64,000 nt of DNA, from positions 43,407-107,406 of the forward strand of contig JBKKAL010000297.1 in the NCBI GenBank assembly GCA_046714695.1, read 5' to 3'. Below the pieces are notes generated by a model. That model was given only the letters and a program-made list of their open reading frames with translations. It made no database searches and had not been told where the DNA came from. A program made the position numbers and the translations under genes. Origin of the DNA: Pyrinomonadaceae bacterium. GTDB lineage: Bacteria; Acidobacteriota; Blastocatellia; Pyrinomonadales; Pyrinomonadaceae. Positions 22,918 through 64,000 of the stretch are shown here, in pieces (the first letter of the stretch is position 1; each line of letters begins with the position of its first letter).

Positions 22918-22919
22918 AG

Positions 22920-27405: not shown

Positions 27406-27752
27406 TCATCGAAAACAGCGATCAGACCTATTACCCGGCATTAATTTTAACGAGATTAGTATGAAAAGCTTGCTATTGGTCGTTTGATCTGCTAGAAGCC
27501 CTGTTCTAACTAGGCCCGCGCTCTTTTTCAACTCGGCTTTATTTCCGTTAATGGCTAAGTTTGAACCCAAACGACTAACTTCTTAATCTGCGCCCCTGAT
27601 GAAATATTTCGCCTCAAAACTCCATATAAATTGAGCGAGAAGCATTCAGGAACATTGGCCTACGACTTAATTCCTCGAAGCTTTCAATTATCCCCTAACC
27701 TGTGGTTTGGACTACAGCATTGGCCCCAAATAGTTCAAGGAGAGAGTTCCCC

Positions 27753-49100: not shown

Positions 49101-50089
49101 AGCAGTTGGGCGCAGACATGGTCGTCTCGGCTGCTTATGTGGGCACGCTGGGACGTAATCTGCTGCGATTCACGACGCCGAATCTGGGCACGAATGCGGT
49201 AATTTTGCCCGATCGTTTCTCGGTCGATATCAGCGGTCCTTCCCGATTCGAGCCAAACTTTTTCGGCATTGCCGTTGCGCCCGGCACGCGCCTGACACCA
49301 GCGGGCGATGGTTTTACGGGCGGGCGACCACTGAGCGCGCTGGGCGGCATCAGCATCTTTGAAACTTCGGCCAACTCGCGCTACGACGCTCTGCAATTGC
49401 AGGTGACAGGCCGCTTCCAACGCTCACTGCAATACCAGGTATCCTACACGCTCTCGAAAGTGACGGACGATGTATCGGACGTGTTCGAGTTGGCGGGAGC
49501 AGCGGCTTTACCGCAGAACAGTCTGACGCGCGCGGGCGAGCATGGGCCCGCCAATTTCGACGCGCGTCATCGCTTCACTTACAACTTCGTTTACGACTTT
49601 CCCGCTTTTCGCCGCCGCAGCCGCGCCCTGCGTTTCATCTTTGACGGGCTGCAAATCGCCGGCATGGGTCGTTTCCAGACCGGACAGCCCTTTACAGTCA
49701 ATAGCATCTTTGACGTCAACCTTGATGGTAATCTGACGGATCGTTTGAATAGTTTGAATGGGATTAACCTTACGGGTGATCGTCGTCAACCGCTGCGGCT
49801 GGGGACAAATAATCTAACGTCCCTGCTGGCGCGGGTCGGCGAGGATGGAGGTGTCGGACGCAACACTTTTCGCGCCGGAAGTATTCTGGAATTGGATATG
49901 ACGCTGAGCAAGACTTTCAAGTTCAGTGAAACCCGGCAGCTCACATTGCGCATGGATGTCTTCAATTTTATCAATCGAGCTAACTTCGGTGTCCCGGTTC
50001 GTTTCCTGGAAGCTCCGGGCTTCGGGCAGGCCCTGGACACGATCACGCCCGGACGGCGCATACAGTTCGCTTTGAAATACTCCTTTTAA
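46199..50089 (+). CDS. TonB-dependent-receptor-like outer-membrane beta-barrel with N-terminal CarboxypepD_reg-like domain
   Basis: 1296 aa with the signal peptide MSSHTRIGSRWIIIFALSLTPFLARSGATSAQD. The CarboxypepD_reg-like stretch is GTVTNSQTDATIGGASVEIINQQTALVIAKRTDSRGRFYQGLLTPGIYRIRVSAPGF, followed by a Pro/Thr linker. A plug-like segment is present (GLRSRANNFTVDGSDNND). A long barrel ends in the aromatic C-terminus IQFALKYSF. Confidence 0.8.
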   Translation: MSSHTRIGSRWIIIFALSLTPFLARSGATSAQDTVTGAFEGTVTNSQTDATIGGASVEIINQQTALVIAKRTDSRGRFYQGLLTPGIYRIRVSAPGFQTREVIQRLFITRTGEVVPVPVSLDPAPAVPALPIPSTQPGTGPATGSATTTAPTQPSLSVRDTDVRAGINTTDARRGGAFTEEEVSTLPLGATTLTRTFDELTLLLPGVALAPQTLGGGVGPGVGAGVGTSGQFAVNGLRSRANNFTVDGSDNNDEDIGVRRQGFFSLIPQSIESIREYQAITLLAPAQFGRNIGAQVNAVSKSGGNETHATLYGFFNSSQLNARNFFDSARGNAISQLRSSNQLVISAPALSFNNATLNFDAVGGRPVTIQNQSGGEDSFTFAQGGFVIGGPLVPDKLFYFISAEGQVLNATREASFIVPTVAQRGAFGSGASGIFRDPYDLDPEFSFPTTAGGDAIFSLFPFPNDPQGSYGANTFTQVLPSSAQGKILSGKFDSNFAFKGRQQSLTGRYNFTDDWRQIPVTGGALFSTLRPRVRTQNFSFFVNSEISGPDSLVPIFNQLRLSYGRTRLKFEEDRDRTFLLPSNRFPSTPFLLNAPLRENFTLPNIINNQLVANQGPVILRNIQTVEDQLGPVGQVIVAGFSPIGVDVFNFPQRRVNNTYQFADHVTVRFGNHNMVFGTDNRRTELNSDLPRNERPLITFQGAPELDLRPDNSLAFTGNFVRPEDLAAASAASGFFQTLTGGTDAAINLRFYQFNFFGQDEWHIRPNLSISYGLRYEYNTPAREVNRRVEESFESPALGLIPGLSRFIAGRRQIFDPDRNNFAPRFAIAYSPDLFGRNHATVIRGGYGLFFDQILGAVVSQSRSVFPRFVTVNLAGGLGNLFFPNLPLTLLNPSDPRLPNGDPVDIGLVSGGTLNRLDPALSLADQIALINLLASAGGQLPGASGIEVTLPARRLPMPNAHHYSLSFEQQLGADMVVSAAYVGTLGRNLLRFTTPNLGTNAVILPDRFSVDISGPSRFEPNFFGIAVAPGTRLTPAGDGFTGGRPLSALGGISIFETSANSRYDALQLQVTGRFQRSLQYQVSYTLSKVTDDVSDVFELAGAAALPQNSLTRAGEHGPANFDARHRFTYNFVYDFPAFRRRSRALRFIFDGLQIAGMGRFQTGQPFTVNSIFDVNLDGNLTDRLNSLNGINLTGDRRQPLRLGTNNLTSLLARVGEDGGVGRNTFRAGSILELDMTLSKTFKFSETRQLTLRMDVFNFINRANFGVPVRFLEAPGFGQALDTITPGRRIQFALKYSF

Positions 50090-50201: not shown

Positions 50202-53200
50202 CTATCTTTTGATGGCGATCAAAGGTACTGGCGTATCCCGACGATAAAAGGCGCGCGGGCGCTGGAGGCTGCGCTTCTCCATATCTGACATCTGCTCCTC
50301 GCCCTCGACGAAAGCGACTTCCGCGCCGACGCTGCGTCCCTGTTTCATCTTTTCTACCTGCATCTGTGGCACGCGCTCGGTCGCGTAATCAAGCCACTCC
50401 TGTAACAGCACCTGCCCATCTCTGGGCGCGCGGTCTGCTGCCGACTTTTTGAGCCCCTCTTCCACCAGCGCGTAGGTCAAAAGCCCGTGCCCGAGTTGCG
50501 TTGCTTCCAGCGCAGCCTGATAGCTTTGCGCCGCCGTCAGGATATACATGCCCTTCTCGTAAGCGAGTTGCGCCAACCCCTTCGAGTTCATGGGCCCACG
50601 TCGCTTCTCTTCAGCTTCAAGCGCCTGCCCGGAGTTGCATGCATCGAGCACCAGAAGGAGTTGACCGGCACTGATCTTCTCAAAGGCTCCTTCCATCTCA
50701 AGATCTGAGATGCTATGGGCGAGGATTGATTGGAAGCCCGCTTCATCAAGCCGGCGGCGCGAGCCCTGGTAGCCCAGATCATGCGGTAAGAGGTAGAAGC
50801 GCGCCTGATGCGCCAGACCGTGTCCGGCAAAATAAATGATAACGGCGTCTTCCGGTTGAGCGGGTTTAAGTTTCGAGAGTTCGGCTGGCGCTCCGGCCAT
50901 CAACGTGTTCGTGTCAATCCCGGCGAGACGGTTCAAGGCGCTCATGATGTTTGCCTTGGTGGCCTGTTGATCCAGGAGAGGTATCACCTCTATGTTGCTG
51001 AAGCGGCCGAGGAGGTTCTGCTGGCTGCGACGAACCTCATCGCTAAACTCATTGGCGTCGGGGACGGCGAATTTCAGGTTGTACTGAGGATTAGCATAAG
51101 TGTTGACGCCAATGGCGAGGATATAAGCGGTGGCCGGTTGTTTGAGGCTCGACGCTCCATTGATCGAGAGAGTATTGTCTGCGCTCTTGATATTGTCGCG
51201 ATTGAACGCATAAACGTTCAACTGGTTCTTGCCGGCAATGACTGGAATGGTAACGTCTAAAACCGCCTTGCCGCCGCCGTTTAAGACATCACCGCGCCAT
51301 ACCTTGACGAGCGAGCCGTTGCGAAAGAGCCTGACATCACGCGCTCCGCTGCCCGTCGCGTGATGGCTGTCGGGCGGCGCTTCATCCACTTCTATCTTGA
51401 CCGCCAGCTCTCGTGTCGCAACGCTTTCCACCTTTTCCCCCTGCGAGCCTTCTGCGCCGACCCTGACGGCAATGCTCGGCTGTCGGCGATCCAGGCGCGT
51501 TATATCCTTTGGCGCTCGCGGGTTCTTACGCGCGAGGATGTCTGCGAGGAGTCCCGGATAAAAAAATTCATTAAAGAATACCTCGACGGGTCGGACGTTG
51601 AGAGTGTTCTGTTCGAAGCGCCAGAGAATCTGTCCCCAGGCGGCGGGCGAGCCGTCAAAGAGCCCATCGGGCGAGACCACCAGCCAGTCCGTATGTTCTG
51701 CCGCAAGGCCCTCGGCACTCTCGCGTAATGAGACTAAAGTAGCGGCGAGTTGGCCTGTGCCGGCGTCCCAGATGCGCGAGCTACCGTCTTCGCTGCCGGA
51801 GGCAAACCATCTACCGTCACGGCTGAAACTGACCGAATAGACCTCACTGGAATGGCCCGTCAGCGTTCGCAGTTCCTTTCCCGTCGCCGCCTCCCACAGC
51901 TTGACTGCATTGTCTTTGCTGCCGGAAGCGAGCACCCGCCCGTCGGGGCTAAAAGCGACGGCTTTCACTTCTGCCGCATGGCCCGTCAGCGTGCGCAGTT
52001 CCTTTCCCGTCGCCGTCTCCCACAGCTTGATGGTTTTGTCAGCGCTGCTCGATGCCAGCCACTTGCCGTCCGGGCTGAAAGCAGTAGCGCCCACTTCTGC
52101 CGTATGGCCCGTGAGTGTGCGCAGTTCCTTTCCCGTCGCTGTCTCCCATAGCTTGATGCTCTTATCCGCGCTTCCTGTAGCGAGCATCTGGCCGTCGGGA
52201 CTAAAAGCAAGCGCATAAATCTCCGCGCTGTGACCCGTGAGCGTGCGCGCTTCAAGGCCCGTCTTCGTCTCCCATATCTTCGCAGTGTTATCGCCGCTCG
52301 CGGTCGCAAGCCATTTGCCGTCGGGACTGAATGCCAGTTGGTTGACGCTAGAGGTGTGGCCCGCAAGGCTGCGCACTTTTTGTCCGGTGGCAGTTTCCCA
52401 GATCGTCGTCGCGCCGCTCAAGCCCGCGGCGGCGAGCAGGCTTCCATCCGGACTGAAGGTGACGGCATTGATGAAACCGCTGTTGGGATCAAGCGTGCGC
52501 AACTCGCGGCCCGTCTGTGTTTCCCAAAGCTTGACTGTATTTTCCTTTCCCCCGGTGGCGAACCAGCGCCCTTCGGGGCTGAAAACAACGGCCGCGACTC
52601 CGTATGAATGCGTGGAGAGCGTATGCACATCCTGGCCCGTCGCTCTATCACGGAGGGTAATTGTTTTATCTCCGCTGCTGAGCGCCGTCCAACTACCGTC
52701 ATGGCTGAATGCCATCGCGATGGCTTCGAGCCGAGGCTCACCGTTTGATCCGCTATTATTTTGACTCTCTCCCCATGTCTGCACATCCCAAAGTCTGACT
52801 GCATTATTGGAGCTTCCGGCGAAGAGCCGCTTTCCATCCTGACTGAAAGCGACGGCGATAACCTTGCCGGGAGCGTTGAGTGTCTTCTGCTCGCGTCCAT
52901 TGCTCGCCTTCCAAATCTTCACAGCAGAGTCGAGCCCCCCCGAAGCCAAAAGCTCTCCATTCGGGCTGAAGTCGAGCGCCTTAACCTTATCCGTATGGCC
53001 CGTCAGCGTGCGCAGTTCCTTTCCCGTCGCTGTCTCCCATAGCTTGATGGTTTTGTCGGCGCTCGCTGTCGCCAGCGTTTGACTGTCGGGGCTGAAAACG
53101 ACGGCCGTGATAGGCCCGCCATGGCCGCCCAGCACAGCGCGCGCCGCGCCCGTCTGAACGTCCCATATTTTGACTGCATTCTCCATATTGCCGGAGGCGA

Positions 53201-53696
53201 AAGATCGCCCGTCGGCGCTGAAGGCGACGGCGCTGACGCTGCCCGCTTCCAAAAGACTGCGCACTTCGCGACCCGTAGCGACATCCCAGAACTTAACGCT
53301 CCCGTCGACGGAGCCTGAGGCCAGGAGTTTCCCATCCTGACTGAAAGCCACAGCCCTGATGCCACGCGCATGACCTGTCAGGCTACGGACTTCGCGTTTT
53401 GTCGCTACATCCCAGAGTTTGACCGTATTATCACCGCTCCCGGAGGCGAGTAGTTGCCCTTCGGGGCTGAATGCGAGGCTGTCCACACGCATCGCATGGC
53501 CGGTTTGTAAAACCAGTTCAGGTCTGCTGCCCGTACCGACCTGGGCCGGGTTCGTAAAAGATGCTCGCGTGGGCGGCGAGAGGAAGCCCTGGGCCGCTGA
53601 GAGAAAAAGCGCGAAGGCCAACGGGACAAAGAGCGAGACTGGAGTTCTGATATTCTTCATAAGAGCTTTGGAATTGATGGGTATGTTTGGTTTCAT
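50202..53696 (-). CDS. signal-peptide WD40 (14 repeats) - linker domain - C-terminal caspase-like (peptidase C14) protein
   Basis: The ORF is open to 53816. Likelier starts are ATG 53696 (MKPNIPINSKALMKNIRTPVSLFVPLAFALFLSAAQG) or 53660. It has 14 WD repeats (xAFSPDGxxLASGSxDxTIKLWE). The caspase dyad motifs are AVIIYFAGHG (His) and LLLVLDACNSG (Cys), within about 50205-51240. Confidence 0.85.
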   Translation of the reverse strand: MKPNIPINSKALMKNIRTPVSLFVPLAFALFLSAAQGFLSPPTRASFTNPAQVGTGSRPELVLQTGHAMRVDSLAFSPEGQLLASGSGDNTVKLWDVATKREVRSLTGHARGIRAVAFSQDGKLLASGSVDGSVKFWDVATGREVRSLLEAGSVSAVAFSADGRSFASGNMENAVKIWDVQTGAARAVLGGHGGPITAVVFSPDSQTLATASADKTIKLWETATGKELRTLTGHTDKVKALDFSPNGELLASGGLDSAVKIWKASNGREQKTLNAPGKVIAVAFSQDGKRLFAGSSNNAVRLWDVQTWGESQNNSGSNGEPRLEAIAMAFSHDGSWTALSSGDKTITLRDRATGQDVHTLSTHSYGVAAVVFSPEGRWFATGGKENTVKLWETQTGRELRTLDPNSGFINAVTFSPDGSLLAAAGLSGATTIWETATGQKVRSLAGHTSSVNQLAFSPDGKWLATASGDNTAKIWETKTGLEARTLTGHSAEIYALAFSPDGQMLATGSADKSIKLWETATGKELRTLTGHTAEVGATAFSPDGKWLASSSADKTIKLWETATGKELRTLTGHAAEVKAVAFSPDGRVLASGSKDNAVKLWEAATGKELRTLTGHSSEVYSVSFSRDGRWFASGSEDGSSRIWDAGTGQLAATLVSLRESAEGLAAEHTDWLVVSPDGLFDGSPAAWGQILWRFEQNTLNVRPVEVFFNEFFYPGLLADILARKNPRAPKDITRLDRRQPSIAVRVGAEGSQGEKVESVATRELAVKIEVDEAPPDSHHATGSGARDVRLFRNGSLVKVWRGDVLNGGGKAVLDVTIPVIAGKNQLNVYAFNRDNIKSADNTLSINGASSLKQPATAYILAIGVNTYANPQYNLKFAVPDANEFSDEVRRSQQNLLGRFSNIEVIPLLDQQATKANIMSALNRLAGIDTNTLMAGAPAELSKLKPAQPEDAVIIYFAGHGLAHQARFYLLPHDLGYQGSRRRLDEAGFQSILAHSISDLEMEGAFEKISAGQLLLVLDACNSGQALEAEEKRRGPMNSKGLAQLAYEKGMYILTAAQSYQAALEATQLGHGLLTYALVEEGLKKSAADRAPRDGQVLLQEWLDYATERVPQMQVEKMKQGRSVGAEVAFVEGEEQMSDMEKRSLQRPRAFYRRDTPVPLIAIKR
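51852..53063 (-). repeat. near-identical intragenic WD40 repeat DNA copies
   Basis: ATGGCCCGTCAGCGTGCGCAGTTCCTTTCCCGTCGCCGTCTCCCACAGCTTGATGGTTTTGTCAGCGCT at 51978-52046 matches 52995-53063 at 66/69. Shorter copies start at 51852 and 52104. All four encode KLWE(T/A)ATGKELRTLTGH. Confidence 0.8.
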
Positions 53697-53974
53697 GCGC
53701 CAGAGAATTGAGGACGAAAGGCCGCCTGCTCGTTTGACGATTTGTTGAATCCCTTTTTTTAAAGCGACCAACAATAAAAAGTTTTTTTCGAGTGAGCCGA
53801 ACGCCAGAAAAATCAATGAAGAATACGGGATCTCTTACGTATAATGAAAAGCGTCGCCAGCGAAAGCTCGTCGGAATAGACCGGCCTGTGACGTTGATAA
53901 CCGCACAGTAGGCGAGCCGCCCGATGATTGTCAAGCCCCTTTTAGACGGGCATCCCGGCACGCCTGCCTTGATA

Positions 53975-54004
53975 TTGACCAATGATCTGCGGCGGCCGTA
54001 CAAT
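53975..54004 (+). promoter_or_regulatory. sigma70-like promoter candidate with ~365-nt leader for the CHASE2-cyclase gene
   Basis: TTGACC (53975-53980), an 18-nt spacer, then TACAAT (53999-54004). Confidence 0.3.
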
Positions 54005-54369
54005 TACCCAACTTGCAGACTTTTTATTCTTTTAAGTTTCGAGTAACTGGGGATTCCGGTAGTGGATCGGTTTCAGAACAAACAATTGCCTTCTTCAACT
54101 ATTCCGCCAGGCGCCAATGAAACGTTTTGCCCCAAATCTGCATTGATATTTAGAACAGGTTAGGCGGGATAATTACCCCTGGATGGCTCAAACCGGAGAG
54201 AGGCCCATTCGGATCTGAAATTGACTTACCGGCTCGAATCCCATCTGCTCCTGCGAGCAGTCATCAACGGGGCCATTTTTATACCATCCATCTGTTTTTC
54301 GTCACTCGGCTCTGGATGATTCTTTCATTCCGAACTCGTATAGTTTCGACGATTCCCCGCTGGCATTAA

Positions 54370-56454
54370 GTGCTTATGCCCCTCGTCCGTCGCTATTCAT
54401 TTACGCCTTACCTATTACGCCGTTGGTACTGGGCTCTGGCTCTTATCCTGACGTGCGCAGTCTGGATTATTTCGGCGTTGGCGATGCGTCCTTTGAAGGA
54501 TGCCGACGGCTCTTACGCGTCGCGTCCATATGGGCTCACGACCGGGCTTGAAAATCAGGCGCTTGATCTGCTCTTCCAGGTGCGTGACGTGCGGCGACCG
54601 CAGCAACGCATGCGCGGATTCAGTGAGCCGATTACGATTATAGAGGTTGACGAGGCGGCCATTAAAGCTTCAGGCGTGCGTCTGCAAAAATGGCCGCGCG
54701 ATTGGTACGCGCGCCTCGTGGATCGCGCCAGCGAGGGCGGAGCAACTGTCATCGGACTCGATTTTTTCTTGAGTGAAGCGGGAGGGCGCTCCACCGAAGA
54801 CGCCAAAACTGATCAGCAGTTGGCAGAATCCATTGCCAATGCCGGAAACGTCGTCGTGGCGATGAAGCTCGATGCCGGAGGCTACGAGGCAATCAACCCC
54901 CTTCCGATGTACGGCCAGGCGGCATGGGCCACGGGCTTCGTGGACGTTCCGGTCGATAACGATGGGTTCGTGCGCAGCCTGCTGCTTTTTCGCGCGCGAC
55001 CGGGGGAGAATACAGAGTTCAGCTTTGCGACCCGCGTGGTTGAGGGGCATCTATTGGCCCAGGCCTACTCACAGAAGTTAACGGAGTTACAGGGTCGCGC
55101 TTTGAGCGAAGAAGCGGCTGCCGATGAGGCCGCGCAATATGCGCAGCAAAAGTCCGAGATGAAGCCCTGGGGTAAAGACGCGATCATGATAAACGAGCGC
55201 GTCATTGCTCTGCGCAACGACAATACACTCCAGCTTGATTACCGTACGCGCCCCCCGGCATTTCGTCGCATCTCTGCCGCAGACCTTCTTTTCAACGATC
55301 AGGCACAGATTTCGGATGACCTGTTCCGCGACCGTATTGTGCTTATCGGATCAACTAATATAGATGCTCCTGATCTTTTTCCGACGCCATTTTATGAAGC
55401 CTCATGGCTGCCACGCCTGCTCGACAGGCGCATGCCGACCGCGCCTGCGCGGACTCCCGGTGTCGAGTTGCATGCGACGGCTGCGGCGACGATGCTGTTC
55501 GGCAATACGCTGACGCGCCCGCGTTATCGCTGGCAGGTATCTTTGCTGCTGCTGCCTCTGGTGTTTGCGGCGCTCGCGGTATTTCGCCTGCGTGCCCTGT
55601 GGGCCTTGCTGGCCGTCTTCCTGCTCGCGCTGGCCGTGCTCGTCGTCGCTCTTTTGGCGTTCAGCAGCCGTGGAATGATTCTGCCGCTGGCGACCACATG
55701 GTTGGGCCTCGTCCTGCTTGCGCCGACAGGCCTCGGCCTGCGCTACGCGCGTGAGCATATGCTGCTTGGTGAGAAGGAGGCAGAGCGTGCGCAGGTGATG
55801 GACATCCTTTCGCGCTGTGTCTCGCAGAACGTGGCCGAAGAGCTGTGGCAGCGGCGCGACCAGATTGTCAGCGGCGAACGACGTATCGTCACCATCATGT
55901 TCACGGATATACGCAACTTCACCACGCTCTCGGAGACGGCCGCTTCGGATGATCTGGTCGAATGGCTCAACGATTATTTCAGCCGCATGCACGAGAGCAT
56001 CGAAGCCCACTGCGGGCATATAGACAAATTTATCGGCGATGGTTTGATGATCGTCTTCGGCGCGCCGGCTTCGCGCGGTGATGAAGCGGAAGCGCGTGCG
56101 GCGGTCGCCTGCGGCCTTCAGATGCTTGATGAAGTCGAGCGCATGAACGAAGAGTGGAAAGAATTGGATCGCCCGCAGATTAGGATTGGCGTCGGCATAC
56201 ATACGGGCGAGGCCACCTGTGGCGTGGTCGGTGCGGAGCGCAGGCTTGAGTATACTGTCATTGGGGATACTGTGAATCTGGCTGCCCGTCTTGAATCAAC
56301 GACCAAGGAGTATGGTGTGCCCTTGCTGATTAGCGAGGCGACGGCGCGCCTGCTCAATGAGGATTTTGAGGCGCATGCGCTCGGCGAAGTTAAAGTCAAA
56401 GGCAAAAACGCAAGTACCCGAATTTACACCGTCAAGCAAAGGAATCCATTGTGA
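54370..56454 (+). CDS. CHASE2 sensor domain - 3 TM - class III adenylate/guanylate cyclase
   Basis: 694 aa with a GTG start at 54370 or ATG at 54376. An N-terminal TM is followed by a ~330-aa extracytoplasmic region with CHASE2-like motifs (LDLLFQVR, ITIIEVDE, GATVIGLDFFL, GFVDVPVDNDGFVR). Three TM helices follow. The cyclase core is IVTIMFTDIRNFTTLSE...FIGDGLMIVFGAP...IGVGIHTGEATCGVVG...YTVIGDTVNLAARLES. Confidence 0.85.
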   Translation: MLMPLVRRYSFTPYLLRRWYWALALILTCAVWIISALAMRPLKDADGSYASRPYGLTTGLENQALDLLFQVRDVRRPQQRMRGFSEPITIIEVDEAAIKASGVRLQKWPRDWYARLVDRASEGGATVIGLDFFLSEAGGRSTEDAKTDQQLAESIANAGNVVVAMKLDAGGYEAINPLPMYGQAAWATGFVDVPVDNDGFVRSLLLFRARPGENTEFSFATRVVEGHLLAQAYSQKLTELQGRALSEEAAADEAAQYAQQKSEMKPWGKDAIMINERVIALRNDNTLQLDYRTRPPAFRRISAADLLFNDQAQISDDLFRDRIVLIGSTNIDAPDLFPTPFYEASWLPRLLDRRMPTAPARTPGVELHATAAATMLFGNTLTRPRYRWQVSLLLLPLVFAALAVFRLRALWALLAVFLLALAVLVVALLAFSSRGMILPLATTWLGLVLLAPTGLGLRYAREHMLLGEKEAERAQVMDILSRCVSQNVAEELWQRRDQIVSGERRIVTIMFTDIRNFTTLSETAASDDLVEWLNDYFSRMHESIEAHCGHIDKFIGDGLMIVFGAPASRGDEAEARAAVACGLQMLDEVERMNEEWKELDRPQIRIGVGIHTGEATCGVVGAERRLEYTVIGDTVNLAARLESTTKEYGVPLLISEATARLLNEDFEAHALGEVKVKGKNASTRIYTVKQRNPL

Positions 56455-56495
56455 TGGCCCGGCCCCGTTCATGCCTCGGCCAGGAGGTCATGCAA

Positions 56496-56537
56496 ACGAA
56501 TATAGAATATTCGTACAAATCGTTGTCTTTCTATAAT
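56496..56537 (+). promoter_or_regulatory. 8-bp-arm palindrome followed by a perfect TATAAT upstream of the DUF928-like gene
   Basis: ACGAATAT-aga-ATATTCGT spans 56496-56514 and TATAAT lies at 56532-56537. The palindrome covers the expected -35 position. Confidence 0.3.
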
Positions 56538-56583
56538 ATTACTCTCGGGTCTTGATACACTTTCAGGGAAGAAGGAGAAAGTC

Positions 56584-57315
56584 ATGTCACATCCAAGCAA
56601 GCTCATTTCACGTCTATCGTTAATCGGTCTCTCAATTTTACTTTCGAGCCTGATCGGCTTCGTCATGGTCGAAGCCCAAAACAAACCGGCGGCGCGGCGA
56701 CCGCTGCCGAAGCCCAAATCGGGCTCGCGCGGCTTTGAGCAGTCTGCGTCGCGGGATGCCTCATCAAGACTTATCAGCGGCGGGGCGACGCGCGAGGTGA
56801 CGAGTTTTCGCAAGCCGATAGCTCCAATGCTCGGTCTGGCTTATGATGCCCGACCCTTTTTCAAGTGGAGCCCGGCCTTCGGCACAAAGTCATATCATTT
56901 TACGCTCTATGATGGAGATGTAAATTCTACTGCCTCTGTGCCTGTCGTCTTTGAGACCGATACGACCGCAACGCAACTGGTCTATCCCAAGGACGCGCCG
57001 GCTCTCCAACCCGGAACGCTCTACTCCTGGAGGGTGCTGACCGAATTTGAAGGCAAAAAGGAGCTGGGGCCGGCGGTCACATTCTTTATCCTCGCGGGGC
57101 AGGATGCGACCGATGTAAAGGCGGCTTTAGAGCAGGTCAAATTAACTGCGCCGGTCACGGCTGCTGATCGTTTACGGCAGGCTAAAGTTTTTGAGGAGTA
57201 TGGCGTCTGGTACGATACGCTTCGCATTAGCGATGAGGTGACGGCGCAGAATACCAGCGATACCGAGGCCCAGGCTTACTATGATTCGCTTTTAGACAAG
57301 CTCGAAGGTAAGTAG
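56584..57315 (+). CDS. secreted DUF928-like protein
   Basis: AAGGAG Shine-Dalgarno and signal peptide (LISRLSLIGLSILLSSLIGFVMVEAQ). The core pattern is RPFFKWSPAFGTKSYHFTLYD...LVYPKDAPALQPGTLYSWRV, matching my recollection of DUF928 (P.F.W...Y.F.L.D...YP...L..G..Y.W.V). Confidence 0.65.
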   Translation: MSHPSKLISRLSLIGLSILLSSLIGFVMVEAQNKPAARRPLPKPKSGSRGFEQSASRDASSRLISGGATREVTSFRKPIAPMLGLAYDARPFFKWSPAFGTKSYHFTLYDGDVNSTASVPVVFETDTTATQLVYPKDAPALQPGTLYSWRVLTEFEGKKELGPAVTFFILAGQDATDVKAALEQVKLTAPVTAADRLRQAKVFEEYGVWYDTLRISDEVTAQNTSDTEAQAYYDSLLDKLEGK

Positions 57316-57472
57316 AGCAAAACGGTCGTGTGTGGGGCTGCGCGCATCCTAAACCGGAGCCATTCGGGAAAGCCAAAGGGAGCGTGCCCATCAGGGCACA
57401 GATGGCCTCGTCCCTTTCCGTCTCGGCCTTGAAGGGGACGAGCATGGGCTCGCCTTAAGTAAAGAGAAAATC

Positions 57473-57874
57473 ATGAATCAAGGAGCCGCTCGCGCTCAAA
57501 AAATTCTGGTGGTTGACGATGTCGAGACGATGCGCGATATGCTGAAAGCATGGCTCGAGGGGCTCGGTTACAGCGTGCTGATCGCCGAAGATGGACAACA
57601 AGCCGTCGAGACGGCGAAGCGCGAGCTGCCCGACCTTGTTTTGATGGATATAGGTATAGGCCCCCAGAGCGGTCTTACTTCTGTGGCCCAGATGCGTGAA
57701 GACGCAAAACTCGATGGTACTCCGGTTGTGGCCCTGACGGCTTACGATTCGCCGGGCCTGCGCCTTGATGCTGAGAAAAAGGGCTTCGATGAATACGTCA
57801 CCAAGCCATTCGTTCCAGAGGAACTGGGGCAGCTCATAGAAAAGCTTCTGAGCAAACCTCGAACGCACCTTTAA
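57473..57874 (+). CDS. stand-alone response-regulator receiver (CheY-like)
   Basis: ILVVDDVETMRDML, the phospho-acceptor context DLVLMDIGI, and VVALTAY...KPF. Confidence 0.85.
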   Translation: MNQGAARAQKILVVDDVETMRDMLKAWLEGLGYSVLIAEDGQQAVETAKRELPDLVLMDIGIGPQSGLTSVAQMREDAKLDGTPVVALTAYDSPGLRLDAEKKGFDEYVTKPFVPEELGQLIEKLLSKPRTHL

Positions 57875-57965
57875 GATAGCGTGAGATCATCCGGCGTGCC
57901 GGAGTAGTCCGATCCCAGGATCAAACTTCTTTTCCGGCCCGCTTCTTATCCTGGAGAAAACTCAG

Positions 57966-58715
57966 ATGCGGTATCAGGGCGAGCAGTCGAGGCGCAGGCG
58001 TGAGCGCATGGCGATGCCTCTGCCCGTGCAGGTTGAGGCGAGAGAGAGCGCAGACCACAGTTGGGTCGAGGAGAGCAAACTGATTGACGTCAGTCCCTTT
58101 GGCGCGCGCTTTGTGATTAGCCATCCCACAGAGCCTGGACGCCTGCTACATTTAACGAGTCCCTTGCCGCGCCCTCTTCGTTGTTTCGATTTTGATGTGG
58201 AGCAATACAAAGTCTGGGCTCTGGTTTGCCACATCAAACCGCTTTCACTGGAACCGGAGCGAATGCCGCGCTTTGAGGTCGGCGTCGCTTTCACAGGTCA
58301 GCACGCGCCTCAGAACTTTGAAAGAGATCCGGCCATATCTTACGAAATCACACCCGCTGCGAACCAGGATAGTCTGTGGAACTTAAGTGAAAAGCAGCAA
58401 CCTGAAGCGACCGGAAGTGTTGCCCGTGAGCGGCGCGCAGAACCGCGATACGAGAAGGCGGATGAGGTCGTGATTGAGGTATACGATGCAGAAGGAAACG
58501 TCTTTGCGCGCGAGACGACAAGGACGGAGAACATCAGCCGGCGCGGCATGTGCATTATTACAGATCTGAATATCACCCGCGGGCGCTACATACGCATTAG
58601 AAGCCCACACCACCATATCGCCGTCATCGGTGCCGTGCGTCGTTTACGAAGAGATGCTGATGGTCTGAAGCGTCTTCACCTGGAATTCGTTGACCAGCAG
58701 TGGCCGCCCCTTTGA
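57966..58715 (+). CDS. tandem PilZ-domain protein (predicted c-di-GMP binding)
   Basis: It has two RxxxR ... (D/N)xSxxG pairs: RRRRER...IDVSPFGARF and RRAEPR...TENISRRGMCI. Confidence 0.7.
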   Translation: MRYQGEQSRRRRERMAMPLPVQVEARESADHSWVEESKLIDVSPFGARFVISHPTEPGRLLHLTSPLPRPLRCFDFDVEQYKVWALVCHIKPLSLEPERMPRFEVGVAFTGQHAPQNFERDPAISYEITPAANQDSLWNLSEKQQPEATGSVARERRAEPRYEKADEVVIEVYDAEGNVFARETTRTENISRRGMCIITDLNITRGRYIRIRSPHHHIAVIGAVRRLRRDADGLKRLHLEFVDQQWPPL

Positions 58716-58867
58716 TGAATCGCAAGCGGGCTCAGGTAGTCGCCCACTGCATCAAAAATCATTAGAGCTTTTAGCGATAACCTACAGCACCCGCCGCAAC
58801 CAAGTGATAAGTAGCGTGCCTAGCCTCAGTTTATAGCCTTTAGTGGATTGACGGGATAAAGAGCGTA

Positions 58868-59926
58868 ATGGCCGAGGCGCAACTCCAGGTTGATGAAATT
58901 CTGCTTCCCTTACTCCACGCCTCGGATGAGTCGGAGTCGCAACGCCTCATTGCGAACATCATCTCGGAACATGCCGACTCGGTTATCAGAGATATTATCA
59001 AGTACAAGTTGTGGGACTTTACCAGGGCGGTTGATAATGGGCGACTGGCGGCGGACGCGGAGGACATCTATAACGATGCCGTCATGCAGTTGCTTGAGCG
59101 GCTGAATTTATTCAGAGCCGACCCCGAACACAACGCTATCGGCCAACTACGCAGCTATGTCGCAGTTATAACCTACCACTGCTGCTATCGTTACCTACGG
59201 CAGGTTTATCCGCAGCGACACATTCTGAAGAACAGGCTACGCTATCTTTTGACGCGTCAAACAGGCTTCTCGCTCTGGGAGAGCGCGGATAAAAAGACCT
59301 TGTGTGGTTTTGCGGCCTGGCGCGGACGCGCCCCGGCGTCCCACGCCGAGAGAGTCAACCAGCTTCTGCAACAACCCGAAGTTTTGGAGCAGATGAGAAT
59401 TAATGCTTCCGATATATCACGCGCCAGGCCAGCGGATTTGATTGCGTCGGTCTTTACTTTTATAGAAGGCCCCATCGCGCTGGACGAGTTAGTAAACATA
59501 GCCGCAAGACTATGGGGTGTTAAAGACCAGGAATCCGTGTCTGAACCTGAGGGAGATGAATCTGTACTGTCTGCAAGAGAACAAGGCGACCTTGGCGCGC
59601 AGGTGGATAGAAGAGACTATCTTCAAAAGCTATGGCGGGAGGTACATCAGCTTCCCGTAGGGCAACGTGCGGCCCTTCTGCTGAACCTGAGGGGAGCGGA
59701 AGGACGCGGCTGTATAGAGTTGTTTCAATTCGCCGGTGTAGCGACCATAAGGCAAATAGCCGATGCTCTGGAAATTCCTATGGAACAGTTCGCGGCGCTC
59801 TGGAATGAGTTGCCCATGGATGACCTGGCGATTGCAAAGCGTTTGGGGCTCAATCGGCAGCAGGTTATCAACTTGCGCAAATCGGCCCGCGCCCGCCTCG
59901 CCCGGAGAATGAAAAACCTTGAATAG
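58868..59926 (+). CDS. ECF-like sigma-70 family factor with ~130-aa insertion between regions 2 and 4
   Basis: The region 2-like stretch is EDIYNDAVMQLLERL...LRSYVAVITYHCCYRYLRQ. The region 4-like stretch is LPVGQRAALLLNLRG...IAKRLGLNRQQVINLRKSARARLARRM. At 352 aa it is much longer than a typical ECF factor (~180-200 aa). Confidence 0.65.
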   Translation: MAEAQLQVDEILLPLLHASDESESQRLIANIISEHADSVIRDIIKYKLWDFTRAVDNGRLAADAEDIYNDAVMQLLERLNLFRADPEHNAIGQLRSYVAVITYHCCYRYLRQVYPQRHILKNRLRYLLTRQTGFSLWESADKKTLCGFAAWRGRAPASHAERVNQLLQQPEVLEQMRINASDISRARPADLIASVFTFIEGPIALDELVNIAARLWGVKDQESVSEPEGDESVLSAREQGDLGAQVDRRDYLQKLWREVHQLPVGQRAALLLNLRGAEGRGCIELFQFAGVATIRQIADALEIPMEQFAALWNELPMDDLAIAKRLGLNRQQVINLRKSARARLARRMKNLE

Positions 59927-60029
59927 TCTATTTTATTATTGACCGGCTGGTAATATCCTGTCTGTTTACGAACCAGTAATAAATGAAGGGCGAAAGGTAA
60001 TCGCTCCGCTGAAAGAAACAGAAGCACAC

Positions 60030-61352
60030 GTGACCGAACATCTCACAGACAGACAAATAAAGCTCTACCATGACTGCACAATCACTGCCGCGGAGCTTGT
60101 CGGCCTGGATAGCCATGCTTCAGCCTGCGCCGATTGTCGTCGCAGGCTGGCCGCCACGGGGCAGGAAGAGCAGAAGTTTCTCTCACTCAAAAAAGTCTTT
60201 GATTCCGCATCCGAGGACCATCCTGATTACGAGCGCTTTGCGGCCTACGTTGACGGCACGTTGATGAAGGAGGCGGCGGGGCTCATGGAAGCTCATCTGT
60301 CTGCGTGCCGGGAATGTCAGTTAATGGTGAGCGACCTGATGGTCTTCAGGGACGAGGTCGCGCCGGATTTCAATAAGGTGTACGCCCCGCCCGCGAGCTC
60401 CCCCGATTCAACTTCATTAGGGCGACGTTTGATGGCATCGTTAAATTCCGCCTTCGCCTTTAAGTCGCCGGCCCTGACCATGAGCTTCGCGTTGATGGCG
60501 CTCTTTATCATCGGAGTTGTTTTCTGGTTAGTCCTCCTGCGCTCCTACAGGCCTCGTGACACACAGCCGCAGGTCGCACAGAGCCCGACTTCAACGCCCG
60601 CGCCGGAGGTGAACGCCCAAGGAGATAATAATAATCCAGCCCCGACGCCTGAAGCAGCGCCTGAAGCACCTCCGGTTTTGCTCGCCCTTAATGACGGCGC
60701 GCGTCGCGTTGCTGTTGATAAAGAGGGAAATTTAACCGGATTGGACGAGTTGCCGCCAGCGCACCGGCAGGCCATCAAAACGGCCTTGACCACGCAGCAG
60801 GCTGCAAATGCTTCGGCGCTCGCAGGTCTTGGTAAAAGGGGCGGAGGGCTCAGGGGTGCAGGCGACAACTCCACCTTCGGGCCGCTCAACCCCGTAGGCA
60901 AAGTCATACTCACGGACAGGCCTCAACTCAACTGGAGTCGTTTGGACGGGGCGAGCCATTACCGGATCATTATCTACGATTCAGATTTCAACGTTGTCTC
61001 TTCGAGTCAAGAGCTTACGACGAACAACTGGACAGTGCCGCGCTCCCTTGACCGGGGCCGGATCTATTTGTGGCAGGTGGTGGCGACCAAAGATGGTCAG
61101 GAGACAAAAGCGCCCGTTCCTCCTGCTCAGGAAGCAAGGTTCAAGGTGTTGGAGCAGAGCAGGGCTAATGAGCTAAGTCAGGCTCGCAGGTCTTATGCGG
61201 GGTCGCATCTGTCCCTGGGTGTCCTTTACGCGCAGGCGGGACTGCTAGAAGAGGCCGAGCGCGAGTTCAGACTCCTGCTCAAAGCCAATCCAAATTCAGA
61301 TGTCGCAAGAAACCTCCTGCGCAACATCAGAACGACGCCTCGCGTTCGTTAG
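60030..61352 (+). CDS. zf-HC2 anti-sigma factor, single TM, periplasmic DUF928-like + TPR-like domain
   Basis: GTG start. It has two Zn-finger-like motifs (HASACADCRRRL, HLSACRECQ) and one TM helix (LTMSFALMALFIIGVVFWLVLL), followed by a Pro-rich linker. The periplasmic part then reads RPQLNWSRLDGASHYRIIIYDSD...LDRGRIYLWQVVA, followed by LGVLYAQAGLLEEAEREFRLLLKANP. Confidence 0.75.
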   Translation: MTEHLTDRQIKLYHDCTITAAELVGLDSHASACADCRRRLAATGQEEQKFLSLKKVFDSASEDHPDYERFAAYVDGTLMKEAAGLMEAHLSACRECQLMVSDLMVFRDEVAPDFNKVYAPPASSPDSTSLGRRLMASLNSAFAFKSPALTMSFALMALFIIGVVFWLVLLRSYRPRDTQPQVAQSPTSTPAPEVNAQGDNNNPAPTPEAAPEAPPVLLALNDGARRVAVDKEGNLTGLDELPPAHRQAIKTALTTQQAANASALAGLGKRGGGLRGAGDNSTFGPLNPVGKVILTDRPQLNWSRLDGASHYRIIIYDSDFNVVSSSQELTTNNWTVPRSLDRGRIYLWQVVATKDGQETKAPVPPAQEARFKVLEQSRANELSQARRSYAGSHLSLGVLYAQAGLLEEAEREFRLLLKANPNSDVARNLLRNIRTTPRVR

Positions 61353-61388
61353 AAAATCGTTTAATAATTTCCCTCAAGCTCGTAGCTG

Positions 61389-64000
61389 TTATCGCCTGTC
61401 TCCGACGAGGAGGAAGCTGGCCCAGTAGAACGGATGCCTGTATTCCGGGGTTCGCATTAAGCTGATTGCTGCCGCACGTAGTGATTTGGCTTTCCTGTTT
61501 CGAGATGTAGGTTTATCAATCTCCGCCTTCAGATTGCTGTGAAAGTTCAGCATCAACTCCTTGGTGACGATCGAATCTACCTTCCACTGGCTGACGACCG
61601 TTGCGGGGCTGCCAGCCACGAAAAGAGCCCACGTCAGGCCTATCACTCCTTCGCCCGCGCCGAAACGTCCGCGCGCCGTCTCGCACGCGGAGAGCACTAC
61701 CATGTTGGCACGCAGGTCTAATTTCGTTATCTCCCGCGCCTCAAGCAGACCGTCCTCGCCGGGCTCACCCTGTGACAGCACGATATAGGAATACATCGGG
61801 TTCGTATCGTTAAGCACGCCGTGTGTGGCGAAGTGGATGATGGAGAATTTACCGATCTCTTTCTTGGCACGTTCTTCGCGCGCCTCCACGCGAGTGTAAA
61901 CGCGGCTGCGCGACGGCCCATAGATTTGAGCCAGTTTTTTTACTTCATCCTCGGTTTCCGGCAGCGGTGCAAGTGGCTCGCCGCCACTGCCGCGTGCGGC
62001 GCGGGCACGCTCAACAGTTAACTTCCCGAGTGTCGGATTACCGAAGGCCAGCAGCATAAAGTTATCTGCCTTGATCGTGGCAGTCTCCGTCCGACGCAAG
62101 GTTTGCATCTCCAACAGCACTGAAAGAGAGGGAGCGTAAGCGATGGCGCTCTCTTCGATCAAAAATCTATTCGGCTTCGACATCAGGGCCTGGAAGGGAA
62201 GCTCCCAGAGCACATCGTCGGGCACGATGACCAGATCGCTGCGCCCCTGTAACTGCGCATGAGCCGGGGCAAGGAGCAGATCATAAAAGTTTCTGGAAGG
62301 CTCTCGAAAGCCCGGGTCACGAGCGGCCAGGGCACGGCGATAGGTTTCGACGCGTTGGGCCAAATCTTTGCGCTTAATCTCCACGGGATAAACCTTCAAA
62401 TCCGCAACCGTTTGATTGGCGAGTATGCTTCTTGTCAGCACGAAGAGGTATGTGCGCTCTTCGGTGACCACGTACTGGAGAAGAGCTGTTGCGGCGTCGG
62501 GCAAAAGCTCCAATGTTTGTATTGGCTCCATGATGCGCGCTTTGCCGCGTCGGAGTTTCAGTTCCGGGTGCGAGGCGTAGAGCGCGGTTTCAAATGCTTC
62601 ATGATCAAGGCGCGCTTTTTGTTGCCTCTTCTCCAGCTCTGCGAGGCGTTTCGCCTGTGGCGAGGATTGCTGGCGCTCGCGCGTTATCTGCGCATTGAGC
62701 GAGATCATCTCATTATTGAGCCGTCTCTCCTCGATCTGCTCGGCGGCGCTCATGGATTTTGTCACGTTGGCCCTGCCACTCTGTAGAACATCCAGTAGCA
62801 CGCGCCCCTTCGCCCGCTCGGCGTAAGAGAGAGCCTCGTAGAGTCTGTTCTGCCCGATCAGTAGCTCGACCATAGCGTAATAGGGCGAAACCTGGCGCTC
62901 AAAGAATTTCTGCTCGTCGCGCGCGCCTCCGGCGGCGAAGCGGCGCAGTTCTTCGACGGATTCAATCGCATCGTTGAAAGCCTTCTCGGCCTCCCTAGGT
63001 TTTCCCGTCGCATGCAGGGTCCGACCCAAGGTCGTATAGGCCGCGGGCCGCTCGGCAGGCTGGTTCAGTTCTTCCGTGATTCGTATGGCGCGCTCCGCGT
63101 GCTCTACGGCGCGTTTATAATCGCCCAGGGAGTAGTAAACATCGGCAAGGTTCTGATTGACCAGTGCACGGTTGCGCTTGACCTTGACCTCTTCGAATAA
63201 CGCATCAGACCTTTTGTAATACTCAAGTGCCTTTTGCAACTCACCCCGCAGGCGATATACGTCACCGCTGCTATTTAAGAGGCTGGCTATTCTGTGTCTG
63301 TCCTTTATCTCTTCGGCTATCGCCGTACTGTTCTGTAGGTATGTGAGCGACTGCTGCAGATCACCCATCAATCCGTACATATCGCCGATGCGGTTCAAGG
63401 TGTCGGAGACCCCCTCTTTCGTGGCGCTGCGTTTCTCCAACGCACGCTTATAATAATCGAGCGCCAGTTCGTAGTTGCCCTGGCGGGCGTGTACGCCCGC
63501 GATGTTATGAAACGCTATGCCTACGTCGTCGTTAAGCCCCAATTGCTCCTTTAACACAAGGGATTTCTGGTAATACTCCAGTGCCAGGGCCGTGTTGCTC
63601 TGGTAGAAATAGAGATTGCCCAGAAGATTATTGGCGCGCGCGGTAAGCTGTTTGGCTTCGCCCGATTCCGCCAGATATTTCCGCGCCAGTTCGAGCGCCA
63701 GGTCAATCTGGCCGAGTTCCACGTAGGTCGTACTCAGGTTGCCGCGCACGGCGCTGGCGCGAGGCCTGTTACCCAACTCCTCGTAGAGCGCGAGCGAACG
63801 CGTGAAATAATCTATGGCCTGCGTGTAGTCGCGCAGGAAATAGGCGAGCCCCCCCAGACCGTTGAGCGCCGTCGCTATCCCCTCCTTATCCCCCATTTCC
63901 TCCTTGATGCTGAGGCTCTTTCGGTAATTCTCCTCCGCCAGATCGTATTTGCCTTGAGACCTGAAGACGTTCCCGATGTTACGCAGCGTAGACCCCTGCG
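61389..64000 (-). CDS. TPR-repeat CHAT-domain (caspase-fold) protease, 5' end beyond window
   Basis: The reading frame stays open upstream of the listed ATG (63896) to the window edge, still encoding TPR (..LRNIGNVFRSQGKYDLAEENYRKSLSIKEEMGDKEG..). More than 10 TPRs are present. The C-terminal CHAT domain carries the His motif FSIIHFATHG and the Cys motif MVVLSACETARG. Confidence 0.85.
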   Translation of the reverse strand, partial: QGSTLRNIGNVFRSQGKYDLAEENYRKSLSIKEEMGDKEGIATALNGLGGLAYFLRDYTQAIDYFTRSLALYEELGNRPRASAVRGNLSTTYVELGQIDLALELARKYLAESGEAKQLTARANNLLGNLYFYQSNTALALEYYQKSLVLKEQLGLNDDVGIAFHNIAGVHARQGNYELALDYYKRALEKRSATKEGVSDTLNRIGDMYGLMGDLQQSLTYLQNSTAIAEEIKDRHRIASLLNSSGDVYRLRGELQKALEYYKRSDALFEEVKVKRNRALVNQNLADVYYSLGDYKRAVEHAERAIRITEELNQPAERPAAYTTLGRTLHATGKPREAEKAFNDAIESVEELRRFAAGGARDEQKFFERQVSPYYAMVELLIGQNRLYEALSYAERAKGRVLLDVLQSGRANVTKSMSAAEQIEERRLNNEMISLNAQITRERQQSSPQAKRLAELEKRQQKARLDHEAFETALYASHPELKLRRGKARIMEPIQTLELLPDAATALLQYVVTEERTYLFVLTRSILANQTVADLKVYPVEIKRKDLAQRVETYRRALAARDPGFREPSRNFYDLLLAPAHAQLQGRSDLVIVPDDVLWELPFQALMSKPNRFLIEESAIAYAPSLSVLLEMQTLRRTETATIKADNFMLLAFGNPTLGKLTVERARAARGSGGEPLAPLPETEDEVKKLAQIYGPSRSRVYTRVEAREERAKKEIGKFSIIHFATHGVLNDTNPMYSYIVLSQGEPGEDGLLEAREITKLDLRANMVVLSACETARGRFGAGEGVIGLTWALFVAGSPATVVSQWKVDSIVTKELMLNFHSNLKAEIDKPTSRNRKAKSLRAAAISLMRTPEYRHPFYWASFLLVGDRR

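Follow-up and report, generated by a model that had tools for sequence, protein, structure and literature searches.

Two adjoining putative envelope-signalling modules with predicted exported caspase-fold proteases and DUF928 domains in a Pyrinomonadaceae-like acidobacterium

In the sigmaE-RseA-DegS-RseP pathway, a periplasmic site-1 protease removes the ectodomain of the anti-sigma factor; site-2 cleavage can then follow and set the sigma factor free. DdvA of Myxococcus xanthus is a zinc-finger anti-sigma factor with a periplasmic TPR-CHAT part in the same polypeptide, and signal-induced self-cleavage by CHAT was proposed as the site-1 step before RseP (PMC11506125). Truncated DdvA was shown to be lost in an RseP-dependent manner, and the authors called DdvA the only characterised anti-sigma factor of its kind, having found DdvA-like proteins in Myxococcota and, beyond these, in one Comamonas only; DdvA/DdvS controls a CBASS and CRISPR defence island (PMC11506125). 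In the type III-E CRISPR Craspase, the TPR-CHAT protein Csx29 works with Cas7-11 and cleaves Csx30, relieving inhibition of CASP-sigma (PMC10028731). Literature on DUF928 is almost nil: a WD40/CHASE2/DUF928 cluster was mentioned in Nostoc (PMC5587647), and a caspase-CHASE2 fusion was catalogued in 2010 in Trichodesmium (PMC2853523). Here we analysed a 64,000-nucleotide stretch of DNA (the window) from a Pyrinomonadaceae-like acidobacterium, in which eight consecutive non-housekeeping genes from position 50202 onwards encode proteases and signalling proteins of these kinds. Our main reading, to which we give a probability of roughly 0.85, is that they form two independent envelope-signalling modules that happen to adjoin: module A (50202-58715), with a WD40-caspase, a CHASE2-cyclase and a secreted DUF928 protein, and module B (58762 to beyond 64000), with a sigma-like protein, its anti-sigma factor and a TPR-CHAT protease.

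Gene calls were taken from the open reading frame (ORF) listing together with Pfam and NCBIfam profile searches of the window proteins, and these recovered all eight genes in the order proposed by an earlier annotation made from the DNA letters alone (the sequence-only reading). That annotation had taken them as a candidate single composite system, which the comparisons did not support. Each half recurs as a unit in other genomes, and the side-by-side placement of the halves does not recur. For module B, 323 loci of sigma relatives were confirmed in species-representative genomes; the best 80, with several paralogues per genome, were analysed by mapping the window proteins onto all their ORFs with phmmer. 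Module-A contexts came from three look-ups and a metagenome scan returning 66 loci (individual loci are given below by L numbers). None of the module-B loci with room upstream had module A, and CHASE2-cyclase, stand-alone DUF928 and window-type PilZ genes occurred in no module-B locus except L001, which is from the same organism. Conversely, none of the 14 module-A loci that extend 4 kb or more downstream has the window-type sigma, and module A recurs in soil metagenomes without module B.

The border between the modules could be located by comparison with L156, the closest relative with usable DNA, whose anti-sigma factor is 78% identical. Alignment of the window to L156 by blastn gave a single collinear stretch, 58762-63997 (85.9% identity), with no match farther to the left, which places the synteny breakpoint between 58715 and 58762. 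Downstream of the L156 sigma gene, TPR-CHAT and an array of small CARDB-domain genes are retained; upstream of it lies an unrelated 199-aa gene. In L157, a more distant relative, genes for Tricorn protease and amidohydrolase occupy this upstream position. Since both relatives have other genes there, adjacency of modules A and B is confined to this genome or a very narrow lineage.

Module B begins with a conserved 106-nt leader or promoter region (58762-58867, plus strand), recognised by blastn against L156. It is followed on the plus strand by a long sigma-70-family protein (58868-59926, 352 aa) resembling extracytoplasmic function (ECF) sigma factors and by a transmembrane zf-HC2 anti-sigma factor (60030-61352), and convergent with the latter by a TPR-CHAT protease gene on the minus strand (61389-64000 and beyond). 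At least 3680 sigma homologues were detected, mostly of ~350-360 aa and from Blastocatellia and Pyrinomonadaceae. An anti-sigma factor comprising both the N-terminal part and the DUF928-like C-terminal part lies directly downstream of sigma in 68 of the 70 loci with room, the position expected for the cognate anti-sigma of an ECF factor. Of the 43 loci with enough sequence on either side of sigma, 37 have a TPR-CHAT gene (~950-1200 aa) within 10 kb of it; in 28 this gene comes immediately after the anti-sigma gene in convergent orientation, and in 6 it is upstream of sigma and on its strand. All-against-all comparison of the module-B loci revealed no further real gene family conserved around these three genes. 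Moreover, the nearest neighbour of sigma was also the nearest neighbour of CHAT in 25 of 44 loci, and their pairwise identities were correlated (r = 0.66), indicating that the three genes of module B diversify together.

The anti-sigma factor matches zf-HC2 at 33.5 bits (Pfam). Its two zinc-finger motifs (60039-60137 and 60219-60317) are followed by one transmembrane helix (~60468-60539), from which a low-complexity linker leads to a DUF928-like domain that includes a helical hairpin (~60870-61349) and is predicted to be periplasmic; conserved segments lie between the linker and this domain in the alignment of homologues. Both motifs are invariant in 29 homologues (H4...H29xxxC33xxC36 and H64...H89xxxC93xxC96, or H-x24-H-x3-C-x2-C twice), in agreement with the pattern H/C-x(23-26)-H-x3-C-x2-C in the N-terminal cytoplasmic domain of zinc-binding anti-sigma factors. 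With two tandem zinc fingers and a long sigma partner, stoichiometry and binding mode may differ from those of classical zinc-binding anti-sigma/ECF pairs. The DUF928-like domain proposed here by the sequence-only reading proved real. When 29 anti-sigma factors were compared with 23 DUF928 proteins, the C-terminal 160 residues were homologous to the stand-alone protein (hhalign 98.1%, E 1.1e-13, 158 columns), and in a local hmmsearch the DUF928 hidden Markov model (HMM) matched residues 281-385 at 1.7e-10; the domain is below Pfam detection.

The sigma protein also scores below standard profiles, with 16.9 bits against a cut-off of 24 for Sigma70_r2 and 29.4 against 42.9 for TIGR02937 (residues 55-347). 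Sigma70_r2 matched 20/23 family members weakly (best E 1.3e-5), and a profile search of PDB sequences found no sigma factor. The AlphaFold2 model (mean predicted local distance difference test score, pLDDT, 77) consists of a helical, sigma2-like N-terminal domain, a structured middle insert of ~130 residues with a beta-hairpin and helices (pLDDT 70-86), and a helical, sigma4-like C-terminal domain. With this model, the best Foldseek matches were nearly all sigma factors (SigD, WhiG, sigma28, sigma32), led by SigD at E 0.012, and none reached E 0.001. The large insert departs from the two-domain architecture of ECF (group 4) factors, in which no sigma3 or comparably large domain separates sigma2 from sigma4, and the best fold matches are three-domain proteins (SigD, WhiG, sigma28). 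As a side observation, insert residues 179-223 weakly matched the N-terminal domain of the RNA polymerase delta subunit in PDB (E 0.02). The CASPASE and TPR Repeat-Associated N-terminal domain (CATRA-N, PF20269) was also considered for sigma; it matched 4/23 homologues (P0010, P0013 and two others, residues ~73-144) at no more than 20 bits against 27, and was not relied on because these matches are sub-threshold and overlap the sigma2 region.

The TPR-CHAT protease matches CHAT (PF12770) at 233 bits against 24, with the domain at ~61398-62303. Its His and Cys had been described as intact, and the dyad is indeed kept; the window end cuts the gene, leaving 869 of 1048 codons inside. The contig of L001, whose sigma protein is 100% identical, carries the full TPR-CHAT of 1048 aa with an N-terminal signal peptide MSHKNRNLLTLLLILSLTALCRSQ; thus, both caspase-fold proteases of the locus are predicted to be exported. 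All 45 full-length CHAT homologues have a signal-peptide-like N-terminus, usually ending ...AQ, and the catalytic His and Cys are kept in 55/55 CHAT domains. An array of up to 7-8 small proteins (~130-170 aa), mostly with a CARDB domain, lies just past the window end, divergent from the TPR-CHAT gene, and is conserved in the closest module-B relatives (L001 11950-15449, L156 6967-8460 and a JGI 3300071325 contig). This array could belong to the sigma regulon.

Taken together with the DdvA literature, module B looks like a split version of the DdvA/DdvS switch that lies outside the DdvA family. In both, a sigma factor is paired with a zinc-finger anti-sigma factor that has a single membrane helix, and this pair is linked to a periplasmic TPR-CHAT in which the His-Cys dyad is conserved; the proposed logic, CHAT-driven site-1 cleavage and then RseP, would be the same. 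In contrast to DdvA, TPR-CHAT of module B is a separate secreted protein, and the anti-sigma factor has two tandem zinc-finger motifs and bears a DUF928-like domain instead of CHAT; a CHAT domain was found in 0 of 123 anti-sigma homologues. The sigma protein, unlike DdvS, has ~350 aa and a structured middle insert, and module B occurs in Acidobacteriota in several paralogues per genome and with no adjoining defence island. In a search with the window CHAT domain, a 991-residue PDB chain annotated as CHAT domain-containing protein (8rot_B), which we take to be DdvA from its length only, was among the few matches (E 0.02).

Craspase offers a second parallel, a TPR-CHAT protease acting on a sigma inhibitor, which in module B is our proposal. 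The window CHAT domain matches Csx29 weakly (PDB 8d9f, E 0.012; NF041237, 22 bits). However, Craspase is cytoplasmic and RNA-guided, whereas the parts of module B upstream of the membrane are predicted to be periplasmic, and no Cas7-11 (gRAMP), Csx30/Csx31 or CRISPR array was found among the locus proteins or conserved neighbours. The module B proposal follows the site-1/site-2 scheme of the sigmaE pathway, with the differences that the candidate site-1 enzyme is a caspase-fold cysteine protease with TPR and not a PDZ serine protease as DegS, and that the ectodomain of the anti-sigma factor is DUF928-like, unlike that of RseA.

Module A is a member of the enigmatic CHASE2/DUF928/caspase association. 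Its WD40-caspase (50202-53696, minus strand; longest ORF to 53816) probably starts at Met41 (53696) or Met53 (53660), followed by a signal peptide MKNIRTPVSLFVPLAFALFLSAAQG, and is predicted to be exported. It contains ~14 WD40 repeats (residues 86-720, ~51657-53561) and a Peptidase_C14 domain (~50367-50906; 28.6 bits against 21.4 with the C-terminal 499 aa), and it also matches NCBIfam caspase_w_EACC1 at 48.9 bits. It has the His-Cys dyad motifs FAGHG and DACNSG, which 8 orthologues (57-62% identity, all with an N-terminal hydrophobic signal) retain; the dyads are kept in both proteases of the locus. The gene is divergent from CHASE2-cyclase in at least eight loci (L093, L094, L101, L102, L116/L117, L139/L140; L116 overlaps L117 and shows part of the caspase gene only). 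The intergenic region (53697-54369, read from the sequence) had been put at ~550-670 nt; 553 nt separate the longest ORFs, and ~670-710 nt result with the likely caspase start. It contains one sigma-70-like site (53975-54004), and the number of such sites is at chance level, as is the frequency of promoter-like and terminator-like sites. An Rfam scan of window 50-64 kb, divergent region included, gave no match.

The CHASE2-cyclase (54370-56454, plus strand) matches CHASE2 at 164 bits and Guanylate_cyc at 117 bits (Pfam). CHASE2 lies between membrane helices (~54532-55566) and is predicted to be periplasmic, and the class III cyclase domain (~55885-56427) is predicted to be cytoplasmic. All sensory and protease parts of the locus are predicted to be extracytoplasmic, in keeping with the extracytoplasmic sensing suggested earlier. 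By inspection, the cyclase has the motifs FTDIRNFT, DKFIGDG and EYTVIGDTVNLAARLE, with metal-binding Asp, the Asn/Arg pair and a Lys/Thr specificity pair, the last of which indicates an adenylate-cyclase type. It is followed on the plus strand by the secreted (predicted) DUF928 protein (56584-57315), a CheY-like receiver-only response regulator (57473-57874; Response_reg, 84 bits) and a double-PilZ protein (57966-58715; PilZ matched by Pfam in two stretches). In 25/31 loci with room, DUF928 is preceded on its own strand by CHASE2-cyclase, which is directly adjacent in 22, and L086 shows the order TPR-CHAT, CHASE2/cyclase, DUF928. A PilZ orthologue follows DUF928 in 15 of 26 related loci and CheY in only 4 of 26, making the latter an accessory of module A.

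PilZ and CheY had been described as cyclic-nucleotide readers, and this description needs correction. Both PilZ halves have RxxxR and (D/N)xSxxG motifs, the C-terminal pair being conserved in 15 orthologues; because these are the canonical motifs for cyclic di-GMP (c-di-GMP), PilZ is a predicted c-di-GMP reader and not a reader of the product of the adenylate-cyclase-type enzyme, and CheY is a phospho-receiver. Orthologues of PilZ are co-conserved with a class III (cAMP-type) cyclase in L084, L093, L094, L100, L116, L139 and others. No GGDEF or EAL gene is present in module A.

The stand-alone DUF928 protein (PF06051, 43.6 bits against a gathering score of 26) has 105 detectable homologues, and those with a named source are from Pyrinomonadaceae. 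A DUF928 profile gave 2278 hits, many of which are multi-repeat giant proteins with generic FN3 or Ig_Rha78A_N repeats, and hence this number is not the size of the DUF928 family. The protein is composed of a signal peptide, a disordered tail (~37-80), an FN3-like beta-sandwich (83-169) and four helices (172-241), with a mean pLDDT of 80 for its AlphaFold2 model. With this model, Foldseek found the C-terminal domain of MtxA best (4z29, E 2.9e-6) and then FN3/Ig folds. Although predicted to be disordered, the tail is strongly conserved (RRPLPKP..G.RGFEQ...SRLI..GATR), with R39, F51, E52, R62, G67, T69 and R70 invariant in the alignment.

At least nine loci have, in place of the stand-alone DUF928, a fusion of ~1550 aa with the order signal peptide-DUF928-TPR-CHAT. 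It follows CHASE2-cyclase in L118, L121, L125, L128 and L136; further copies (L122, L127, L134, L150) are on contigs too short to show the upstream gene, and the architecture was confirmed by Pfam on L121. Separately, we observed in L121 (8175-14521), and also in L127 and L136, a 402-aa sigma-like protein and a soluble 147-aa zf-HC2 protein with the fusion; in L121, CHASE2-cyclase and a second ECF/anti-sigma pair are nearby. The long sigma-like protein of L121 was rejected as a relative of the window sigma (hhalign probability 0.07%).

The statement in the sequence-only reading that CHAT, CHASE2 and DUF928 genes co-occur in cyanobacteria with two-partner secretion (TPS) was borne out on plasmids. 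Searches of PLSDB with the window DUF928 matched only cyanobacterial plasmids. Plasmid pNPUN01 of Nostoc punctiforme combines DUF928 with CHAT, with a CHAT+CHASE2 fusion and with three additional CHAT genes. In Acaryochloris and Leptolyngbya, plasmids encode a STAND NTPase and a TPR-repeat kinase, followed by a DUF928-like gene, a TPR-CHAT gene in convergent orientation and one for a TPS-domain protein. One pNPUN01 gene annotated as CHASE2 (L153, 6344-8761) has an N-terminal CHAT-like domain (28.4 bits against 24) and lies immediately upstream of the DUF928 gene. These clusters join the same domain families as the window. Unlike them, the window has a cyclase output and a WD40-caspase and lacks TPS or ShlB-type genes, and DUF928 fused to an anti-sigma factor was not seen in the cyanobacterial examples examined.

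Modules A and B share one principle, an exported caspase-fold protease with a repeat domain, a DUF928 domain and an inner-membrane transducer. Because these three elements travel together in varied fusions in two phyla, we infer that DUF928 is either the target of the protease or the means of its control. According to our model for module B, a periplasmic cue would cause TPR-CHAT to cut the anti-sigma factor between the membrane helix and the DUF928-like domain, and this site-1 cut would lead to RseP-type intramembrane proteolysis and release of sigma. In module A, the WD40-caspase would bind or process secreted DUF928, probably via its conserved disordered tail; the state of DUF928 would alter what CHASE2 senses and thereby set the adenylate-cyclase-like output, and the co-conserved PilZ would couple the module to c-di-GMP. 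TPR or WD40 repeats may be the peptide-binding domains of the proteases. We regard the full mechanism, with an exported protease acting on a DUF928 domain in both modules, as somewhat better than an even bet. Domain identities, export signals, intact dyads, co-conservation within each module, the fusions and the module border are drawn directly from the sequences, whereas the pairing of protease and substrate, the signalling direction, the cue and the regulon belong to the inferred part of the model. The model keeps two earlier suggestions, the protease-to-sigma switch and the protease/DUF928/CHASE2 link, which fit the neighbourhoods and fusions, and drops their union in one system. We know of no CHASE2 receptor for which a ligand has been identified. 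More tentatively, and with the odds against it, DUF928 may be the common currency of an unrecognised periplasmic caspase-like pathway of Acidobacteriota and Cyanobacteria, in which it would serve for docking and cleavage by CHAT or caspase proteases and, in its cut or uncut form, as the proteinaceous ligand of CHASE2, and in which cleavage of its anti-sigma-fused form would be the site-1 trigger.

Several observations weigh against the cleavage model. Stand-alone DUF928 proteins and anti-sigma factors have no cleavage motif in common: the invariant GATR is not kept, and a shared cleavage site at its Arg was rejected, the anti-sigma factors having Leu-[Met/Leu/Arg]-Gly there. The hhalign match between the two families begins only ~10 residues before the beta-sandwich. 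In six of the 43 module-B loci no CHAT lies within 10 kb; four of these belong to Solibacteraceae or Bryobacteraceae and have shorter anti-sigma factors. Likewise, the module-A loci L084, L107 and L130 show no protease nearby. Assignment of the sigma protein is tentative, being drawn from the sub-threshold profile and fold matches, and cleavage of the DUF928 domain or anti-sigma factor by a protease is itself our supposition. Even in DdvA, CHAT-mediated cleavage has been left undemonstrated (PMC11506125). Finally, a convergent CHAT gene is not co-transcribed with the sigma operon and therefore could be a target of sigma and not its input.

This last point leads to the strongest of the other explanations, in which the proteases are outputs. 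ECF sigma genes often adjoin their target genes. Sigma might then switch on the neighbouring TPR-CHAT as an effector at the envelope or a remodelling protease, with the DUF928-like domain of the anti-sigma factor sensing an unrelated ligand or protease products; the usually convergent CHAT gene, which therefore has its own promoter, and the six loci without nearby CHAT are in keeping with this. Against it, DdvA carries CHAT at the sensing end of the anti-sigma factor itself, the DUF928-TPR-CHAT fusions point to a physical link of DUF928 and CHAT, and CHAT lies upstream on the same strand as sigma in 6 loci. In addition, k-mer enrichment in 75 regions upstream of sigma genes, a crude search, found no ECF-type or shared promoter motif. 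On balance we consider the output explanation improbable, at about one chance in six.

A little less probable still is a role of DUF928 as docking partner of the protease or, in the manner of securin, as its inhibitor. Just as securin keeps separase inactive, DUF928 could hold the protease in check until a cue arrives, the true substrates being elsewhere, for example among surface proteins. The conserved, predicted disordered tail (37-80) would fit a pseudo-substrate or docking peptide, and N-terminal DUF928 in the fusions could serve as a prodomain. However, this arrangement gives no route to sigma release without an added cleavage or conformational relay, and no candidate substrate is conserved in the neighbourhood.

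Returning to the division into two modules, one integrated eight-gene system would require that the two proteases jointly control cyclase, sigma/anti-sigma, PilZ and CheY. The genes are contiguous and all non-housekeeping, DUF928 and a caspase-fold protease occur in both halves, which makes cross-talk conceivable, and L121, from another lineage, packs CHASE2-cyclase, sigma, zf-HC2 and the DUF928-TPR-CHAT fusion in one 11-kb stretch. The sigma-like protein of that stretch is the one unrelated to the window family, though, and neither the two locus sets, which do not share their modules, nor L156, with its unrelated gene upstream of sigma, leave much room for such a system, which we consider very unlikely.

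An anti-phage or abortive-infection system is just as unlikely: it would have the analogies to DdvA/DdvS with its defence island, to Craspase and to caspase-containing conflict systems, the proximity of the caspase domain to the EACC1-associated NCBIfam type, and a 98-bit match of the cyclase to Pycsar cyclase models in its favour, but PADLOC finds no system or effector, there are no cas genes or toxin domains and no defence genes conserved around the three module-B genes, both proteases are predicted to be periplasmic, the cyclase is of the Lys/Thr adenylate-cyclase type with no cyclic-nucleotide-binding effector, and several paralogues per genome fit environmental sensing better. The PADLOC matches at the locus were only generic cyclase, caspase, WD40-repeat, TPR and receiver similarities. 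Pycsar pairs a cyclase with a cyclic-nucleotide-binding effector, a pairing absent here, and a PycC-model match is expected for any class III homologue. The abortive-infection-like role suggested earlier is thus unsupported.

To the left of module A lies an outer-membrane barrel gene with CarboxypepD_reg and OMP_b-brl_4 domains (Pfam; 46199-50089, plus strand), an uncertain associate of the module. It is preceded by a giant ORF (27702-46037, plus strand; 6111 aa) with a signal peptide, at least 13 FG-GAP repeats and Calx-beta and DUF4214 domains, in which an HMM search found no DUF928-like repeats. Relatives of the giant protein adjoin DUF928 genes in L083, L084, L087, L088 and L102, and a barrel orthologue (E = 0) adjoins the WD40-caspase gene in L094 (226-4062), L102 (1-3564) and L140 (99-4049). 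Relatives of either also occur in 16 of the 80 module-B loci, such genes being common in these genomes. No TPS domain was found at the N-terminus of the giant protein and no ShlB-type gene at the window, so that the TPS arrangement is not seen here. Further left are a MerR-type regulator with a B12-binding domain, presumably CarH-like, followed by a lipocalin gene (22000-23537, plus strand), and a 650-aa protein with an OmpR-type DNA-binding domain (Trans_reg_C) and PD40/DPPIV-like beta-propeller repeats (25082-27034, minus strand).

Module A may extend left and relate to the giant surface protein by a logic like that of LapA/LapG/LapD. LapA/LapE/LapG/LapD is an adhesin-release system, and module A with its flank offers similar parts: the giant secreted surface protein, the barrel of the outer membrane, a cysteine protease predicted to be periplasmic, a nucleotide-signalling protein in the inner membrane and a predicted c-di-GMP reader. 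In contrast to that system, the window barrel is of the TonB-receptor-like OMP_b-brl_4 type and the link of module A to the giant protein is only loosely conserved. To our knowledge, there is no homology of module A parts to LapG or LapD.

These findings lead to a functional hypothesis for DUF928, the first to be put forward, and give CHASE2 a candidate partner. Neighbourhoods and fusions (DUF928-TPR-CHAT, anti-sigma-DUF928, CHAT-CHASE2 and the anti-sigma-CHAT of DdvA) link DUF928, caspase-fold proteases, CHASE2 and anti-sigma factors in two phyla. In annotation, caution is needed, as both the DUF928-like domain of the anti-sigma factor and the sigma protein fall below standard profile thresholds. 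As a trigger of site-1 cleavage of an anti-sigma factor, CHAT has so far been proposed only for DdvA, where the idea could not be put to the test, since protease and substrate form a single chain whose signal is unknown. Module B appears to be an undescribed split variant of this recently described protease-gated switch, and it is abundant in Acidobacteriota, as its sigma homologues and confirmed loci attest. Since the acidobacterial module places protease and proposed substrate in separate proteins, cleavage could be followed in a simple in-vitro or reporter experiment.

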